Shown: positions 4,741-63,736, counted from the first letter of the stretch. The stretch is 64,000 nt of DNA from an uncultured Bacteriovoracaceae bacterium (GCA_937952285.1 CALFZE010000104.1:1932-65931); one strand, 5' to 3'. Numbers and translations are program-made. Notes: a model not told the origin generated them from the sequence alone.

Positions 4741-5505
4741 CTAGGGATCGCAGTGGCAACGCCCACCGCTGCAGAGCAGCTCGGCGGGACGACCCCGGTC
4801 TTGGGCCGCGAAAGCGGCCGAGACGAAAATCCCGTTCCGGCGTTGGAAGGCCATAGGCCGCGTCGTTTCGGTCGTCGACCGGACGGGGTCCGGACGTAAG
4901 GCTCCGTCTTCAAGGAAGATTCGACCGTACACGGTAAAGCGACCCGTTTCCTCGGTTTCCACGATCGACGTTCCTCGGAACTCGGCCCACTCGCCGCCGA
5001 AGGCTCCTTGGGCTTCTCCCAAAGTAAGATAACTCAGGGGCGCCGCTCCCCCCTCGGCTTCGGCGGGCGCGGCGTCTCCCCCGAAGGTCGCCTCGGAGAG
5101 AATATCGGGAGGATCTTCGCGACGCGCCATGCTGCCCAGCCGCACCTGAATCTCGCCGTCGCTGACCCGGGTCTGCTCGAGAACCCAAAACTTCGTGGCC
5201 CCCCGCAAGGTCCAGCGGAGCTGACGGACCTCGAGCGACGCGACGGGAAGGCGCGCGACGATGCGATCGACGTCGGTCACGCCGCAGTTCGCGAGCACGC
5301 CCTCTTCGAGGTCGGGGACTTCGGGCGCCGAAGCCGGATGTCGCTCGCCTAGACGAACCGTGACCTTCGATTCGATGCGTTCCGGGCTCTCCTCGCGAAG
5401 TTCCGCGACCGCGTCGCGGGTCGGCTCGCGCGCGACGGGCGTCGACCGAAGCGCCCAAAGCACGAACGAACAGACCAAAAGAAGCAAAGAGGCGCGAATC
5501 CTCAC
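4741..5505 (-). CDS. Hypothetical membrane-anchored or secreted protein
   Basis: N-terminal hydrophobic segment. Co-oriented between xerD and alaS. Ends in C..GGRCHCDP. No family recognised. Confidence 0.55.
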   Translation of the reverse strand: MRIRASLLLLVCSFVLWALRSTPVAREPTRDAVAELREESPERIESKVTVRLGERHPASAPEVPDLEEGVLANCGVTDVDRIVARLPVASLEVRQLRWTLRGATKFWVLEQTRVSDGEIQVRLGSMARREDPPDILSEATFGGDAAPAEAEGGAAPLSYLTLGEAQGAFGGEWAEFRGTSIVETEETGRFTVYGRIFLEDGALRPDPVRSTTETTRPMAFQRRNGIFVSAAFAAQDRGRPAELLCSGGRCHCDP

Positions 5506-21070: not shown

Positions 21071-22355
21071 TCTCGGCCGTGTCCGCGATCAGGCTTCGAT
21101 GGAAGGCCGCGACCTGCGGATCGGCAAAAATCGATTTTGCGTCCCAGCCGTCGACCGTAAGGTGCTCCGAACTGCGCACGCGGCTAAGCGCGACGTAGGC
21201 TTGGCCCGGCTCCCAAAGCTGCTTGAGTGAAACGATCGCGCGATCGATGGTCGCGCCCTGCGCTTTGTGGATCGTCACGGCGTAGGCCAAGTTCAGCGGC
21301 AAGTTGCGGGCCGCCGCGCGCTCGTTACCCTCGGCATCGAGGATAGAGAACCGCGTCGCTTCGATCTGCGCTTGCTGCCCGTTCATGAGCTCGACGTCCA
21401 CGCTCGTCGCGTTCATCTCGCGCACGAAACCGAGGCTGCCGTTCACCCAACGCCCACGCGGGTCATTCTGGCGGATCATGACGAGGGCCCCGAGCTTGAG
21501 TTCCAGGACTTCGGGCACCGGGGCCTGGGCGACCAGAGTCGCGCGCAGGCGTTCGTCGCCGGAGTAGCTCGTTTCGTAAGTTCGCGGGGTACCCGTCAGC
21601 TTATCGAGGCGGCGGCGGTTGATGGCATCGACGTCGGCCTTCTTGGCGTAAAGGGCCGTCGCCTCGGAGATCTCGTCGCCGGGATTCTTGGAGCGCCACT
21701 CGAGCAGATTACAGACGCGTTCGCTCGCGTGACCGACGCGCACGTCGGCCAGGAACTCGCAGTAGTCCACGTCGCCCTTGGCGCGCATCATTTCGGTCAG
21801 GTGCACCGAGCGGAACTCCGTCGCGGCCCAAGCTTTCGAGAGGAAGGCCCAGTCGCGTTGGCGCGAATCGCGCGAGACCGGCGGCAGCTGCGCGAAGTCC
21901 CCCACGGCCACGACCTTTAATCCGCCCCAGGGGCGAGGATCGTCCCGCACGAGCGAGGCGATGCGCTCGGCCACCGCGAAGGCGAGGCCCGGAATCATGG
22001 AAACCTCGTCGAGCACGAAGCCTTGCGCCTTCTTGAGACGCCGCACGACCCGACGGTCTTTGAGCGCGCGATCCACCGCCGCGTGCGGGCCGCCTTCGAG
22101 GATGCCCAGGCCAAAGAAGCTATGGAAGGTACGCCCGCCCACGAGCACCGCGGCCGCGCCCGTGCTCGCGAGCACGGGAAACTTGAGCGCGTCGAGCCGC
22201 CGCAAGTAAGCCCGCAAAAGATGACTCTTGCCCGTGCCCGCGCCACCGGTGATGAAGACGTTACCGTCTTCGGCGAGGTAACGGAGCGCGAGCGATTGCC
22301 CCTCGTTCAGATCACGATTGAGGGTCGCAAGCAGTTCCGGAAGGAGTGAGGTCAT
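21066..22355 (-). CDS. Pif1-family SF1B DNA helicase
   Basis: FITGGAGTGKS, TLHSF-like TFHSFFG, DEVSM, PWGG..VVAVGDFAQLPPV, LAYAVTIHKAQG and GQAYVALSR. Confidence 0.93.
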   Translation of the reverse strand: MTSLLPELLATLNRDLNEGQSLALRYLAEDGNVFITGGAGTGKSHLLRAYLRRLDALKFPVLASTGAAAVLVGGRTFHSFFGLGILEGGPHAAVDRALKDRRVVRRLKKAQGFVLDEVSMIPGLAFAVAERIASLVRDDPRPWGGLKVVAVGDFAQLPPVSRDSRQRDWAFLSKAWAATEFRSVHLTEMMRAKGDVDYCEFLADVRVGHASERVCNLLEWRSKNPGDEISEATALYAKKADVDAINRRRLDKLTGTPRTYETSYSGDERLRATLVAQAPVPEVLELKLGALVMIRQNDPRGRWVNGSLGFVREMNATSVDVELMNGQQAQIEATRFSILDAEGNERAAARNLPLNLAYAVTIHKAQGATIDRAIVSLKQLWEPGQAYVALSRVRSSEHLTVDGWDAKSIFADPQVAAFHRSLIADTAET

Positions 22356-22603
22356 CCGCGGCGCTTCGCGATCCAGCCGCGGACTTCTTCGACGCCGCGT
22401 AGGAGCGTGCCGTCTTTCAGCTTCAACGCGGGGGGCGTGTCGCCACCGCTTAGAAGGCGAAGCTCGGCAAGCGCCGTTTCGCTCACGTCGATGTTTCGGA
22501 AATCGACTTCGTCCCGGATGCCGGCGTCCACGATGAGCTTGCGAACTTCGGCCGAAGCCACGTCCGCGAGGCGATGAAAGAGTTCATGACGAGCGTCCGA
22601 CAT
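22352..22603 (-). CDS. Small glutaredoxin-like-fold protein lacking CxxC
   Basis: 84 codons from ATG 22603. ELFHR...FRNID....TPPAL....LLRG pattern resembles Grx-fold proteins. 4-nt overlap with pif1. Confidence 0.55.
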   Translation of the reverse strand: MSDARHELFHRLADVASAEVRKLIVDAGIRDEVDFRNIDVSETALAELRLLSGGDTPPALKLKDGTLLRGVEEVRGWIAKRRG

Positions 22604-22681
22604 AGGCCTCCAACCTGCCACTCCCCGCCGGGCGAGCCAAGGCCCCCACGGATCGAGGCGCGCTTCCTGCATCTTGGTTAG

Positions 22682-22849
22682 TTATAACGAGATCAGATTA
22701 CGCTTGGGCGCGTTGGCGCTTTCGCCTGGAAAACGCCGTCTTCGCCTCATTTGACTCAAGAGTTTCACGACTTTCGCCGTTAAGAGCCCTAGTTCCGCTA
22801 GGGCTCTTAGGACTTGCAAGATCTGCAGCGCTAACTGCGGGTCTAGCAT
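22682..22849 (-). CDS. 55-aa Leu-rich peptide with basic patch, copy A (putative type I toxin-like)
   Basis: AGGAGG lies 5 nt before the ATG. Translation: MLDPQLALQILQVLRALAELGLLTAKVVKLLSQMRRRRRFPGESANAPKRNLISL. Paralogous to 62137-62277, with synonymous codon changes. Confidence 0.7.
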   Translation of the reverse strand: MLDPQLALQILQVLRALAELGLLTAKVVKLLSQMRRRRRFPGESANAPKRNLISL

Positions 22850-22874
22850 CAGGACCTCCTCCCGGAGGACCTTC

Positions 22875-22924
22875 CTTGGGCCGACCTCAATCCGTGAGGG
22901 TTAAGGTCGGCCCAAGCAGTTTTT
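22875..22924 (+). terminator. Terminator-like hairpin on the strand antisense to peptide A, just upstream of wzm
   Basis: 13-bp perfect stem CTTGGGCCGACCT/AGGTCGGCCCAAG followed by CAGTTTTT. Confidence 0.55.
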
Positions 22925-22968
22925 AGGGCGCTTTGACCCCCGCCCTTCCAGGGATTATTTCCTACCGC

Positions 22969-23826
22969 GTGAATCCGGAATCCACGGCCGCCGCCGAACC
23001 CGTCGTCCATATTCGCGCCGATCGCGGGAACTGGGACTTCCACAATCTCGTCCGTGCCCCCATCCAGGAACTCGTTCAGTTCAAAGAGCTTATCCGGAAT
23101 ACCGTCGTTCGCGACATCAAGGTCCGTTACAAGCGCTCCGTCCTTGGGATCGCCTGGACGATCATCGCGCCGCTCATGCAAATGATCGTCATGTGGACGG
23201 TCTTCACGAAGGCCTTCCAGGTCTCGATGCCGAACTACGCCCTCTATCTCTTCAGCGGCATCATCACCTGGAACCTCTTCTCGCAGTCTTCCGTGGCGGG
23301 CGGCGCCTCGATCCTGGGCGCGGCCGGGCTCATCACCAAGATCAAGCTCCCCCGCGTGCTCTTCCCGCTCACCGCGGTCATCAATAACCTGGTGAACTTC
23401 AGTTTCGCCTTCGCCGCCCTGCTTCTGCTGATGGTCGTCACGCGCGCGCCCTTCCATTGGACGATGCTGAGCGTCCCCTTCATGCTGCTGCCGCTCATTC
23501 TCTTCTGTATGGGCTGGGCGATGCTCGTTTCGGCGCTTTCCGTGTTTTTCCGCGACCTGCAGTACATCCTTGAGATCGCGCTCGGCGCGCTCTTCTACGC
23601 GACGCCCATCTTCTGGGATCCCACGGCCCTGCCCGCGAAATGGCATTGGGTCGCGTCGGTCAACCCGCTCGCCAAGTACGTCTTCATGATGAAGGCCAGC
23701 ATCTACCACGGGGTCCTGCCGAACTTTTCGACCTATGCCATCGCGACCTTCACCGGCCTGGCGATGTTTGTGATCGGCTGGATCGTTTTCCAACGCCTTC
23801 AACGCAAATTCATCTACTGGATCTAG
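22969..23826 (+). CDS. wzm: Polysaccharide ABC transporter permease
   Basis: RDIKVRYKRSVLGIAW, FFRDL..I, FYATPIFW and NPL. Six hydrophobic segments. The start (GTG 22969 or TTG 22933) is uncertain. Confidence 0.95.
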   Translation: MNPESTAAAEPVVHIRADRGNWDFHNLVRAPIQELVQFKELIRNTVVRDIKVRYKRSVLGIAWTIIAPLMQMIVMWTVFTKAFQVSMPNYALYLFSGIITWNLFSQSSVAGGASILGAAGLITKIKLPRVLFPLTAVINNLVNFSFAFAALLLLMVVTRAPFHWTMLSVPFMLLPLILFCMGWAMLVSALSVFFRDLQYILEIALGALFYATPIFWDPTALPAKWHWVASVNPLAKYVFMMKASIYHGVLPNFSTYAIATFTGLAMFVIGWIVFQRLQRKFIYWI

Positions 23827-23829
23827 ACG

Positions 23830-24585
23830 ATGGCGACTTCTTCTTTGCTCACCACCCCGGCCGTCGAGCTCAAAGGCGTCGGCGTTCGCTACCAACTCAA
23901 TCTCGAGAAGGTCTTTTCTCTTAAGGAACTCCTCGTCTCGAAAGCGACCAGACTAGGTCGTCAACTCCGGGGTAGAGAGCAACAAAAAACCCGGCGAACG
24001 GCTGACGATTTTTGGGCCATCCGAGATATCTCCTTCTCCGTTCCCCGCGGCGTATGTATCGGCCTTACCGGACGTAATGGTTCGGGCAAATCGACTACAC
24101 TGAAAGTCATTTCCGGCGTACTGCACCCCACCGAAGGTGAACTTTGGGTACGAGGGCGCGTCTCGGCACTTATTGAACTAGGCGCGGGTTTCAACCCTGA
24201 TCTCACAGGCCGCGAAAATATCTACTTCGGCGCTTCCGTTTCGGGCCTATCTCGCGCCGAAACGGCCAAGCGCATCGATCGCATCGTGGATTTCGCCGAA
24301 CTCCGCGACTTCATCGACATGCCAGTTCGTAACTACAGCTCGGGCATGTACGCACGACTTGGTTTCGCGCTCGCGACGGACGTCGATCCAGATCTGCTTA
24401 TCGTCGACGAGGTTCTCTCCGTCGGCGACGCCCCCTTCCAGCAAAAATGTAAAGATCGCATGGAAAGTTTCAAAAAACGCAACAAGACGATCCTATTCGT
24501 AAGCCACGATCCACAAGCCATCCAAGATTTCTGCGATACTACGATTGAACTCAAGGACGGGCGCATCAACTCTCCAAACCCGTGA
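23830..24585 (+). CDS. wzt: Polysaccharide ABC transporter ATPase (no C-terminal CBM)
   Basis: GRNGSGKST, GFNPDLTGRENI, YSSGM.ARLGF, DEVLSVGD..FQQK and FVSHD. Confidence 0.96.
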   Translation: MATSSLLTTPAVELKGVGVRYQLNLEKVFSLKELLVSKATRLGRQLRGREQQKTRRTADDFWAIRDISFSVPRGVCIGLTGRNGSGKSTTLKVISGVLHPTEGELWVRGRVSALIELGAGFNPDLTGRENIYFGASVSGLSRAETAKRIDRIVDFAELRDFIDMPVRNYSSGMYARLGFALATDVDPDLLIVDEVLSVGDAPFQQKCKDRMESFKKRNKTILFVSHDPQAIQDFCDTTIELKDGRINSPNP

Positions 24586-60706: not shown

Positions 60707-61990
<1,284 letters not shown>

Positions 61991-62065
61991 AAGTGCCCAC
62001 AGGGATAGCACGACGGCCGGAGCAGGCAACGCCCCCACTGGGACAGGCTCAACGACTTGGCGCGG

Positions 62066-62110
62066 AAAATGCTTGGGCCGATCCTGTCCCACGGACGGGA
62101 TCGGCCCAAG
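62066..62110 (-). terminator. Terminator-like hairpin on the strand antisense to peptide B, upstream of eno
   Basis: Stem CTTGGGCCGATCC/GGATCGGCCCAAG (62072-62110), followed on the minus strand by CATTTT. Confidence 0.5.
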
Positions 62111-62136
62111 GAAGGACCCCTTGAAAGGAGGTCCTT

Positions 62137-62277
62137 ATGCAAGACTGGCAGTTAGCCCTGCTTATCCTGCAAGTACTGAGAGAACTAGCAGTGTTGCTAG
62201 TTCTCCTTTCGGCGAAAGCCGAAAGGCTCTTGAGTCGTAAAAACCGAAGAAAGCGTCGATCCTCGCGGTCAAGCTAA
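62137..62277 (+). CDS. 46-aa hydrophobic peptide with basic tail, copy B (putative type I toxin-like)
   Basis: AAGGAGG lies 5 nt before the ATG. Translation: MQDWQLALLILQVLRELAVLLVLLSAKAERLLSRKNRRKRRSSRSS. Confidence 0.7.
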   Translation: MQDWQLALLILQVLRELAVLLVLLSAKAERLLSRKNRRKRRSSRSS

Positions 62278-62341
62278 ACCGACGTTCGGCGTGATCCGAA
62301 CCTAGCGGGCAAGGAAAGCCCCATTCCGTCCGGGGGACGCC

Positions 62342-63736
62342 TTACTTGTTGTAATAGGGATCTTCGACGCTCTGACCGTCCGACTTCAACCGAAGTCCCG
62401 GAGCGAGAATCGCGTTGGGATCGTTCGCGTTAGCCCAAGGCGGCAACGGAAGTTTGTTGTCCTCCGTAAAGGCGCGATGATTGTAGTTGAAGTTTTTCGG
62501 TCGTTCCCAAACTCGGAGGTCTCCGTTTGCGTCCCGCATGACCTCCCAGCGGCGGCCGGAAACGGGATTCACCCACACCGCGGATGAGAATTGTTCCTCA
62601 CCACGGAAATCGAGCCCAAAACCCGAAAGCTCCGGGCTCGAGTTAGGGTTCGACGCTCGAAAGCGTGCGACCTCCTGTCCGAACTCCGAGTCCGCCGGAA
62701 GCCGTTTGGCGAAGCCTTCCCGTAGCAATTTTTCCGTCTCGCTTCGCTGGGCGTTCGACAAAAGTTCGAGATTCCCGAAGCCGTTCTTAGCCTTGTACCA
62801 CGGCAAGCTTTCGGCAATGTACTCCGCCTTCTGCTCTATCTGCTCTTCGGTCCACTCCGGAAAGCGTTTCCGAATCTCGCGGAGGTAGTGCTCTTTGACG
62901 AGCGGGCGCTCGGGATCAACGTCGAGAGTCGCATCCGTGATGATGAGGTCCTTGGGATCGACAGGCGACTCGAGCGGCCTGCCCTCTTTCACTTCGTGTT
63001 TAAGAACGACGCTCGGGACATTGTCGCAGGCGAGTCCGAACTCGCGTCTATCGGGGATGGGTAAATCGACTCGGTCGAGGGTCGAGGCACCTTCGGGTAT
63101 CACAATCGCAAAACTCGCCGTACCGATCTTGAGATAGAAAGTGAGCACACGTGGCTGTCCAGGTACCGAGGCTTTCGCAACGACCAAGTTCACTACCTCT
63201 GCGGTGCCTACATGGTCGCCAGTCAGTGCCTCGGGCACCTTTTGGGCAGCCACATTTCTTCGCAAGGCATAAACCTTATCGAGAAGCGCGAAAAACTTCG
63301 CAGCCGGCTCGGGCCGATTGCGATCAAATGTTTCGAGCTCGGCCTCCAAGGCCTTGAGCTTGTCTTTATCCTGCTTGTACTTGGAGGCACGTTCGGACAA
63401 AAAGCCCCTCAATCGAGCGTTCAGAGGGGCGAGATTTTTGGGATCGAAGTTTCCGACCTGTCCGAGCGTGGCCCCCAAGGCGTTCACAAAGTTTGTCGGC
63501 TTCAAAGTGTCACGACGAGTGAACTCGCCGTCGATGTTCCCTGCGAACCAATGCCGGGCACAAAGAATGTCGCAAAGTCCGCGAGAAGGGTGATCCAGAG
63601 AGAGAGCCTCTTTTGTGTCCGCTCCACAAAGCTGCGGGGACTGGCCCGACTTGACGAGTTCCTCGATGACTTTCTTCTCATGCGCGGATCCGTGGGACAC
63701 GGCAAAGAGCACGAAAAGTCCGATGAGAGCTTTCAT
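62342..63736 (-). CDS. Secreted hypothetical protein
   Basis: 464-aa ORF with a signal peptide (SHGSA). No family recognised. Confidence 0.7.
   Translation of the reverse strand: MKALIGLFVLFAVSHGSAHEKKVIEELVKSGQSPQLCGADTKEALSLDHPSRGLCDILCARHWFAGNIDGEFTRRDTLKPTNFVNALGATLGQVGNFDPKNLAPLNARLRGFLSERASKYKQDKDKLKALEAELETFDRNRPEPAAKFFALLDKVYALRRNVAAQKVPEALTGDHVGTAEVVNLVVAKASVPGQPRVLTFYLKIGTASFAIVIPEGASTLDRVDLPIPDRREFGLACDNVPSVVLKHEVKEGRPLESPVDPKDLIITDATLDVDPERPLVKEHYLREIRKRFPEWTEEQIEQKAEYIAESLPWYKAKNGFGNLELLSNAQRSETEKLLREGFAKRLPADSEFGQEVARFRASNPNSSPELSGFGLDFRGEEQFSSAVWVNPVSGRRWEVMRDANGDLRVWERPKNFNYNHRAFTEDNKLPLPPWANANDPNAILAPGLRLKSDGQSVEDPYYNK

Follow-up and report, generated by a model that had tools for sequence, protein, structure and literature searches.

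The 64,000-nucleotide stretch of DNA analyzed here (the window) carries two copies, A and B, of what its sequence indicates to be a previously undescribed family, in which a small protein is encoded on a conserved structured mRNA. Three further copies, C1–C3, were found in a second organism, and the five copies, which represent three independent lineages, each occupy a different genomic context. The reading that we tentatively favor is that of a type I-toxin-like module. Judged by its flanking proteins, the window belongs to MAG GCA_002343545.1, from bioreactor sludge; ENA and JGI data sets contain assemblies of the same organism, and the loci recovered in order to extend its genome overlap the window. 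The window spans two contigs of the public MAG (DDRA01000066.1 and DDRA01000079.1) and so derives from a more contiguous assembly than the deposited one.

The whole of copy A lies on the minus strand at 22640–22933 and runs from the position equivalent to the promoter motif of the other copies to a 3' motif, as judged from the extent of its similarity to B and C1–C3 (alignment A3; 139.5 bits in cmsearch). On this strand, hairpin H1 (22874–22917) has a lower 11-bp stem that is also that of copy B and an upper stem and loop that are copy-specific. It is followed by hairpin H2 (22851–22872; AGGTCCTCC-GGGA-GGAGGTCCT), which buries the Shine-Dalgarno (SD) sequence GGAGG with a predicted stability of -14.5 kcal/mol and has four pairs changed on both sides. 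The open reading frame starts with ATG at 22849, ends at 22682, and encodes the 55-residue peptide MLDPQLALQILQVLRALAELGLLTAKVVKLLSQMRRRRRFPGESANAPKRNLISL. Hairpin H3 (22815–22848) holds the UG of the AUG paired in its base, and the 12-bp hairpin H4 (22781–22809), which lies within the reading frame, carries a compensatory change of CC:GG in copy A versus AA:UU in B and C. Hairpin H5 (22767–22780; ACGGC-GAAA-GUCGU) has a GNRA loop and codes for T-A-K. An invariant block, CTCTTGAGTC (22753–22762), has a predicted partner, UCGGCCCAAGG, 3' of H1, with which it would form a closing helix that is without covariation. The 3' motif CCTCGATCCGTGGGGG (22643–22658) is complementary to the H1 loop and 3' arm (CCCTCACGGATTGAGG), to a degree equaled by 2 of 500 shuffles. 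The 5' hairpin, the hairpin burying the SD, ATG 22849, and the 55-aa frame are all present as the first-pass annotation of this DNA had described them. It had placed the element at 22682–22924, and here its features stood while its limits did not: the unit is about 40 nt longer at the 3' end of copy A, where it takes in the motif at 22643–22658, and it also reaches further 5', to the putative promoter position.

Copy B occupies 62058–62339 of the plus strand, 40 kb from copy A (150.7 bits in cmsearch). It begins with a sigma54-like -24/-12 motif, TGGCGCGGAAAATGC (62058–62072; 8/10 matches), with the ATG 79 nt downstream, and continues with the predicted fold of H1 (62071–62110) and the SD hairpin H2 (62112–62136; -14.3 kcal/mol). 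The frame of 46 residues (MQDWQLALLILQVLRELAVLLVLLSAKAERLLSRKNRRKRRSSRSS; 62137–62277) contains H3 (62138–62171), H4 (62180–62205), H5 (62206–62225; CUUUCGGC-GAAA-GCCGAAAG), and the invariant block CTCTTGAGTC (62227–62236). The 3' motif CATTCCGTCCGGGGGACG (62322–62339) is complementary to H1 (1 of 500 shuffles was as good), is terminator-like, and abuts the stop codon of a convergent gene. That gene (62342–63736, minus strand) encodes a 464-aa protein with a signal-peptide-like N-terminus, for which no homologue outside its own organism was found among 5.8 billion proteins. Copies A and B are 74% identical over 174 nt by blastn (E = 1e-23; B 62066–62277), match by tblastn at E = 7e-8, and fold into the same row of five hairpins, with z-scores of -6.7 and -8.0 relative to shuffled sequence. 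A cmsearch of the 64-kb window returned these two copies and no degenerate ones, and no tRNA or tmRNA was found in the window.

An index-free HMMER search of 1.84e9 representative sequences yielded one real relative, P0123 (E = 1.6e-5), which clusters with P0124 and P0125. The corresponding DNA (L011, L029, and L030) comes from one sample, where the three lie in separate genomic contexts, and a record of it exists in MAG GCA_041442895.1 as well; its GC content, about 49%, is lower than that of the window. There is, in other words, a second organism with at least three dispersed copies, C1–C3. The peptide searches proposed in the first-pass annotation were productive in both forms, with B recovered by tblastn and P0123 by HMMER, and its suggestion of several chromosomal copies was borne out by A and B in the window and C1–C3 in the second organism. 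Sequence is almost unchanged among C1–C3 between a shared CTGGCAYG-N4-TTGA/ATGT motif at one side and, about 100 nt beyond the stop codon, a T-tailed hairpin at the other, and the flanks are unrelated, which together define a unit of roughly 280–330 nt with sharp borders. The gene caller started C1–C3 at an upstream in-frame ATG; translation from the ATG that follows the SD, the homologue of the A and B start codons, would yield 46 residues with MQD at the N-terminus. The 55-aa frame of copy A was called by JGI only and overlooked in the NCBI annotation of the MAG.

Other searches gave no further copies. A word-indexed search of 5.8e9 proteins with the peptide profile found nothing. Two DNA-pattern scans of 185,579 species genomes gave 0 and 11 matches, the latter by chance inside ordinary genes, and a search of JGI metagenome contigs with one peptide and one DNA pattern gave six chance matches and no confirmed copy; all 17 DNA-pattern matches from genomes and metagenomes were rejected because they lie inside unrelated genes. 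Plasmid and phage collections contained no match, and viral contigs contained no peptide match. A segment of an AT-rich IMG/VR contig (L004, 228–267), in which GGCCCAAGGAAGGTCCTC...GGGAGGTCCTC resembles the junction and SD hairpin of copy A, was dismissed as a chance similarity, being without a reading frame or any other resemblance. A repetitive 615-aa protein (P0122) was likewise discarded as a relative, since it matched on its basic stretch only.

The same order of parts is common to all five copies: H1, the SD hairpin H2, the ATG, H3, H4, H5, the invariant block, a cluster of basic residues, the stop codon, and a 3' UTR. The upper part of H1, CCYGTCC-CAC-GGACGGG, is kept in B and C, and A has another, still pairing, sequence. 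In each of the five, the UG of the ATG pairs in the base of H3, H4 and H5 (ACGGC-GAAA-GYCGU) lie inside the reading frame, the invariant block appears as TCTTGAGTC ahead of the basic-residue cluster and the stop, and the 3' UTR ends in TCCG(T/G)GGGG(A)C followed by T-rich sequence. Conservation of the fold was assessed by running RNAalifold on the core alignment (A4), with pairing partners slid by 1–3 columns and 500 shuffles as controls. Across the five copies, the 49 consensus pairs are paired in 95.1% of cells, compared with 33–43% for the slid controls; 12 pairs are changed on both sides, compared with 0–4, and none of the 500 shuffles was as good. The covarying pairs fall in H2 (four), H4 (four), H5 (two), and H1 (two). 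H3 and the proposed closing helix (UCGRCCCAWGG with UCUUGAGUCG) are invariant, which speaks neither for nor against pairing; in the closing helix, designated helix 2, 6 of 8 pairs do not vary. On the sense strand, 15 cells are G-U and would become A-C mismatches in the antisense, where only 6 C-A cells would turn into G-U; this modestly favors the sense RNA as the folded molecule. The predicted stability of the SD hairpin is almost constant across the three lineages (-14.5, -14.3, and -15.1 kcal/mol) despite unlike sequences, and the SD is sequestered in both full-length and trimmed models (probability of being unpaired at most 0.25). These patterns of substitution indicate that the RNA structure is under selection. 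No Rfam family matched anywhere in the window at the gathering threshold, and permissive scans of A, B, and C3 gave best scores of at most 20 bits against thresholds of 37–150, none of them credible.

The reading frame carries a signal of its own. It is the sole sense frame that is open and has a start in all copies, the spacing SD-N5-ATG is kept throughout, and the three indels within it (3, 3, and 9 nt) are each a multiple of three. Frameshifts or stops in homologues, which the first-pass annotation had named as evidence against a peptide, did not appear in any of the five copies. Summed BLOSUM62 scores of the changed codons in this frame are +13 (A–B), +39 (A–C1), and +31 (B–C1), compared with -41 to +10 in the other two frames, which contain many stops. 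In a permutation test that placed the same substitutions at random with no stop allowed, the corresponding p values were 0.12–0.14, 0.0024, and 0.025. Arginine and leucine residues are kept through two-base codon swaps (AGG/CGA, CGT/AGA, and CTG/TTA), and one basic position is encoded by AAA, AGG, and CGA in the three lineages. The earlier count of 15 identities among the first 20 residues of A and B, with six synonymous codon changes (A7, L11, V13, L14, A18, and L20), is correct. As a sign of selection on the peptide, this comparison does not suffice by itself, given the permutation result for A–B and a distribution of differences over codon positions 1, 2, and 3 of 5/13/14; the coding signal became significant only once the third lineage was added. 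Several A–B changes are compensatory changes in stems, such as CC:GG to AA:TT in H4, and many invariant residues (ILQ, R-E-L, LLTAK, and LS) are encoded by stem nucleotides, so the coding and RNA signals are partly confounded. With that qualification, the substitution pattern indicates that the frame is also under selection, and we consider it very probable that the unit is a translated small-protein gene.

The peptide has 46–55 residues, one long N-terminal helix of hydrophobic or amphipathic character with invariant Q12 and R15, and an Arg/Lys-rich tail that carries most of a net charge of +7 to +9. Its Kyte-Doolittle 19-mer maximum is 1.5 in copy A (1.52, borderline hydrophobic), 2.5 in B, and 1.7 in C. 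AlphaFold, given a two-sequence alignment, predicts a single helix at residues 4–38, with pLDDT values of 83–89 over the first 30 residues, and a disordered tail. The peptide matched nothing in Pfam, NCBIfam (both even at E ≤ 10), PADLOC, or PHROGs; together with the Rfam scans, this agrees with the initial impression that the family was not a recognizable one.

A further feature common to the copies is complementarity between their two ends. In extended folds of A and C3, the H1 region is paired with the 3' motif. The segment GUCCCCACGGAC of the C copies is the exact reverse complement of GUCCGUGGGGAC, and in copy A CCCUCACGGAUUGAGG pairs with CCUCGAUCCGUGGGGG, two G-U pairs included. The core found by RNAduplex is 17–18 bp long in each copy, and in none of them did more than 2 of 500 shuffled 3' segments do as well. 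The cognate duplexes (A–A, -35.2 kcal/mol; B–B, -30.5 kcal/mol) are more stable than the mixed ones (A–B, -20.8 kcal/mol; B–A, -23.6 kcal/mol), which favors intramolecular pairing and disfavors a repeat shared for binding by a transposase. The 5'–3' pairing is part of the full-length minimum free energy structure of all C copies. For A and B, on the other hand, its formation requires that transcription leave out the 5' arm of the lower H1 stem, so that it depends on a predicted start inside that stem and hence on a sigma54-like motif that is unenriched in the window and absent from A. The pairing is lost from the models when 35 nt are cut from the 3' end. The SD hairpin never opens when 35 or 60 nt are removed in silico, and the activation switch of hok and AapA1 is for this reason not reproduced.

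The sigma54-like motif lies at -79 (B) and -78 (C1–C3) relative to the ATG, and copy A has none. The consensus used was TGGCAC-N5-TTGC, with GG at -24, GC at -12, and exact spacing. The motif of C1–C3 reads TGGCAYG-N4-TTGA/ATGT, with 9/10 matches in C3 and GA or GT instead of GC at -12. With up to two mismatches allowed, such motifs occur 44 times in the window against an expectation of 41; since they are not enriched, positional conservation is the sole argument for this one. We regard it as a candidate promoter, which would predict a transcription start at the upper H1 hairpin.

On the antisense strand, no sigma70-like or correctly spaced sigma54-like motif was found at a conserved position. 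Antisense sigma54-like sites in the 3' UTR were rejected as promoters, given that their spacing is off by two in the C copies and that a small hairpin fits the sequence better. One such match, TGGGGCTTTCCTTGC, is found on the antisense strand of the 3' UTR of copy B (62309–62323, minus strand), and the equivalent in A has three mismatches. The likelier reading of the site in B is a small hairpin in the 3' UTR whose loop is AAGGAA and which shows compensatory changes (GGGC...GCCC in B and GCACA...TGTGC in C3). When A and B are read on the opposite strand, the lower H1 stem and an A-run become a 19–20 bp hairpin followed by a T-run, TTTTT in the case of A, and this could hypothetically serve as the terminator of an antisense RNA; no start site for such an RNA is evident at A or B, and the C copies are without the lower H1 stem. 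The terminator-like structure (22874–22925 in the plus reading; 62066–62110 in the minus reading) immediately precedes the starts of divergent neighbors, an ABC-2 permease gene at 22933 and an enolase gene with its ATG at 61990, and it could either end an antisense RNA or insulate these neighbors. The distance to the start of the neighboring gene is 8 nt at A and about 75 nt at B, and the 8 nt at copy A exclude a divergent upstream sRNA of the kind seen in tisB/istR.

The surroundings of the copies provided several side observations. Three of the five copies adjoin cell-envelope polysaccharide genes (22933–24585 in the window, L011 722–2847, and L030 1030–1860), in what is a small sample; these neighbors are an ABC-2 permease with its ATPase, epimerase/dehydratase genes, and a DAHP_synth_1/KdsA-like gene. 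A tRNA-Leu gene (L029 3393–3476, minus strand) lies about 90 nt downstream of copy C2. Downstream of copy A is a small open reading frame (22352–22672, minus strand) for which there is no Pfam family on record. It encodes 84 residues from ATG 22603, which has a GGAGG of its own, and appears in the ORF finder in a 106-aa form, whose N-terminal extension covers the 3' motif of copy A and is probably not coding. The overlap of this frame with the start of a PIF1 helicase gene by ATGA (22352–22355) suggests a translationally coupled pair. Relatives of the helicase (59–69% identity) have different neighborhoods without the element; the nearest are labeled Bdellovibrionota or Bdellovibrionales, and it is from these names that the window is placed near Bdellovibrionota. 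An apparent 43-nt difference in L003 (near position 5340, in the gene downstream of copy A) is not genuine variation; it is an NN scaffold gap, an artifact of the JGI assembly.

Taken as a whole, these features would fit a scheme in which each copy is transcribed independently, as a unit of about 280 nt for a protein of 46–55 residues, and in which the mRNA is constructed so as to be stable while remaining untranslated. The SD would be locked in a hairpin of constant strength and the AUG held in the base of the next, with two more hairpins following within the reading frame, and complementarity between the 5' hairpin region and the 3'-terminal motif might allow the full-length RNA to be closed end to end. 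The product would be a small membrane-active peptide whose synthesis is normally blocked by the folding of its own mRNA. Because this design resembles that of type I toxin mRNAs, namely the tac/fbi pairing of hok and the long-distance interaction of AapA1, we read the unit as a type I-toxin-like module, an interpretation to which we would give somewhat less than an even chance. Within it, we infer the transcription start (by way of the sigma54-like motif), membrane targeting, toxicity, and any activation step. [quoted passage not shown] A bolder version, which we hold to be doubtful, would make this the first family of type I-like toxins from Bdellovibrionota-type bacteria, and one that works without a cis-antisense antitoxin, its mRNA being kept inert by its own fold, transcribed from a sigma54-type promoter with an enhancer-binding protein, and released by processing or unwinding. 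Were this true, the unit would represent a self-contained, signal-gated membrane peptide.

The main rival explanation is a real but non-toxic small protein, such as a condition-specific protein of the membrane or one that binds nucleic acids, with an SD hairpin that throttles translation, end pairing that stabilizes the mRNA, and possibly control by sigma54 and an enhancer-binding protein. We think this quite possible, if on the unlikely side. The coding and structural evidence fits it equally well, no antitoxin was found, and an SD hairpin that stays shut whatever the 3' end fits constitutive low translation or a trans-acting activator; the sigma54-like motif at -78/-79 in four of the five copies is also compatible with it, and the Arg-rich tail could bind RNA or DNA instead of anchoring a membrane helix. 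However, several dispersed near-identical copies per genome, sharp borders, SD and AUG hairpins, and 5'–3' closure are jointly typical of type I toxin loci and form a set that is unusual for ordinary small-protein genes, and no family match backs another function. That the unit is a structured sRNA, wholly or mainly non-coding, with a reading frame that is a by-product of its stem sequences, would account for the very strong structure (z of -6.7 and -8.0), for covariation that reaches inside the frame, for A–B changes that are as frequent at second as at third codon positions, and for the encoding of most invariant residues by stem nucleotides. We nevertheless judge it improbable: every indel is in frame and SD-N5-ATG is present in all copies, frames 1 and 2 score much worse than frame 0, different codons preserve the basic residues of unpaired regions, the C-terminal tail retains its character though its nucleotides cannot be aligned, and no Rfam family matches.

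Two further explanations concern the unit as a piece of DNA or as an appendage of another gene. A MITE-like mobile repeat, in which the 5' hairpin and 3' motif would be terminal inverted repeats for a transposase, would also be multicopy, dispersed in intergenic DNA, and sharply bordered, with inverted repeats, about 17 bp in length, close to its two ends, and the duplex energies do not discriminate between strands. But the repeats of A and B differ within one genome and each matches its own partner, which is the opposite of a shared transposase site. With no target-site duplication at the borders of C1–C3, similarity that runs about 35 nt past the left repeat, just two copies in 64 kb with none degenerate, and an ORF and SD kept across lineages, such an element is highly improbable. 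Scarcely credible, finally, is a cis-regulatory leader (an attenuator or leader peptide) for a downstream gene: a same-strand gene does follow copies A and C1, yet B, C2, and C3 are each followed by a convergent gene, so that three of the five contexts contradict it, and the unit has a terminator-like 3' end of its own and downstream genes that are unrelated.

Type I toxin systems escape routine annotation because their reading frames are short. If the unit is a toxin module, it would add a family from a poorly sampled lineage and an independent example both of 5'–3' mRNA closure and of an SD hairpin whose stability is kept constant. Should it prove non-toxic, it would remain a clean case of one sequence under selection at the levels of both protein and RNA structure. 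In any case, the co-varying long-range pairing is directly testable.

Several known types of element invite comparison. Miniature inverted-repeat elements of the Correia/ERIC type are short, multicopy, and intergenic, have inverted repeats near their ends, and are sometimes transcribed. The units described here differ in that their repeats co-vary in each copy, their SD and ORF are conserved, target duplications are lacking, and copy number is low. In the literature searched, type I toxin systems have been catalogued almost wholly from Proteobacteria and Firmicutes, with few from other phyla (PMC8594479, PMC12390103), and T1TAdb lists 24 families with defined positions of the antisense gene (PMC8594479); a search of the literature for type I toxins in Bdellovibrio found nothing. 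With tisB/istR-1, dinQ/agrB, zorO/orzO, and shoB/ohsC of E. coli, the family shares Leu/Ile/Val-rich amphipathic helices with a few conserved charged or polar residues and, as predicted for the present unit, inactive primary transcripts. Those of the E. coli group, however, are activated by 5' processing, their toxins are 26–30 aa long and without a long basic tail, and their antitoxin gene lies upstream and divergent (PMC8594479), for which copy A has no space.

The likeness to aapA1/IsoA1 of Helicobacter pylori is one of mRNA architecture. The 253-nt aapA1 mRNA pairs its 5' UTR with its 3' end, the SD becomes accessible once about 30 nt are lost at the 3' end, and the IsoA1 antitoxin is antisense to the aapA1 5' UTR and start (PMC5416894); the full-length form of the mRNA is untranslatable (PMC5416894; PMC6733600). 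A small ORF on an mRNA of about 250 nt with 5'–3' pairing, SD-sequestering hairpins, and multiple copies are common to both (aapA1: PMC5416894; PMC6733600). AapA1 itself is a peptide of 30 aa, unrelated in length and sequence, no Rfam match was obtained here, and neither an antisense promoter like the clear one of IsoA1 nor exposure of the SD by 3' loss was seen in the present unit. In hok, pairing between the 5' and 3' ends (tac/fbi) closes the full-length mRNA and an anti-SD sequence holds the SD, until slow trimming at the 3' terminus lets the 5' region refold and release the SD (PMC9841398). Here, by contrast, the SD hairpin is local and in silico 3' trimming leaves the SD paired, independently of the 3' end. 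Also unlike hok/sok, the unit shows neither a leader frame overlapping the ORF in the manner of mok nor an antisense promoter like that of Sok, matches no Rfam antitoxin, and has a peptide, from a different phylum, without Hok/Gef homology (no Pfam or NCBIfam match at E ≤ 10). The resemblance lies in a peptide of about 50 aa with an N-terminal hydrophobic helix, a self-contained structured mRNA with its SD sequestered, the frequent presence of several chromosomal copies, and, as a counterpart of tac/fbi, a co-varying 5'–3' duplex of 17–18 bp in all copies, start-dependent in A and B. A putative toxin-antitoxin pair at most, and a member of none of these families, the unit would thus work in part like hok and AapA1.
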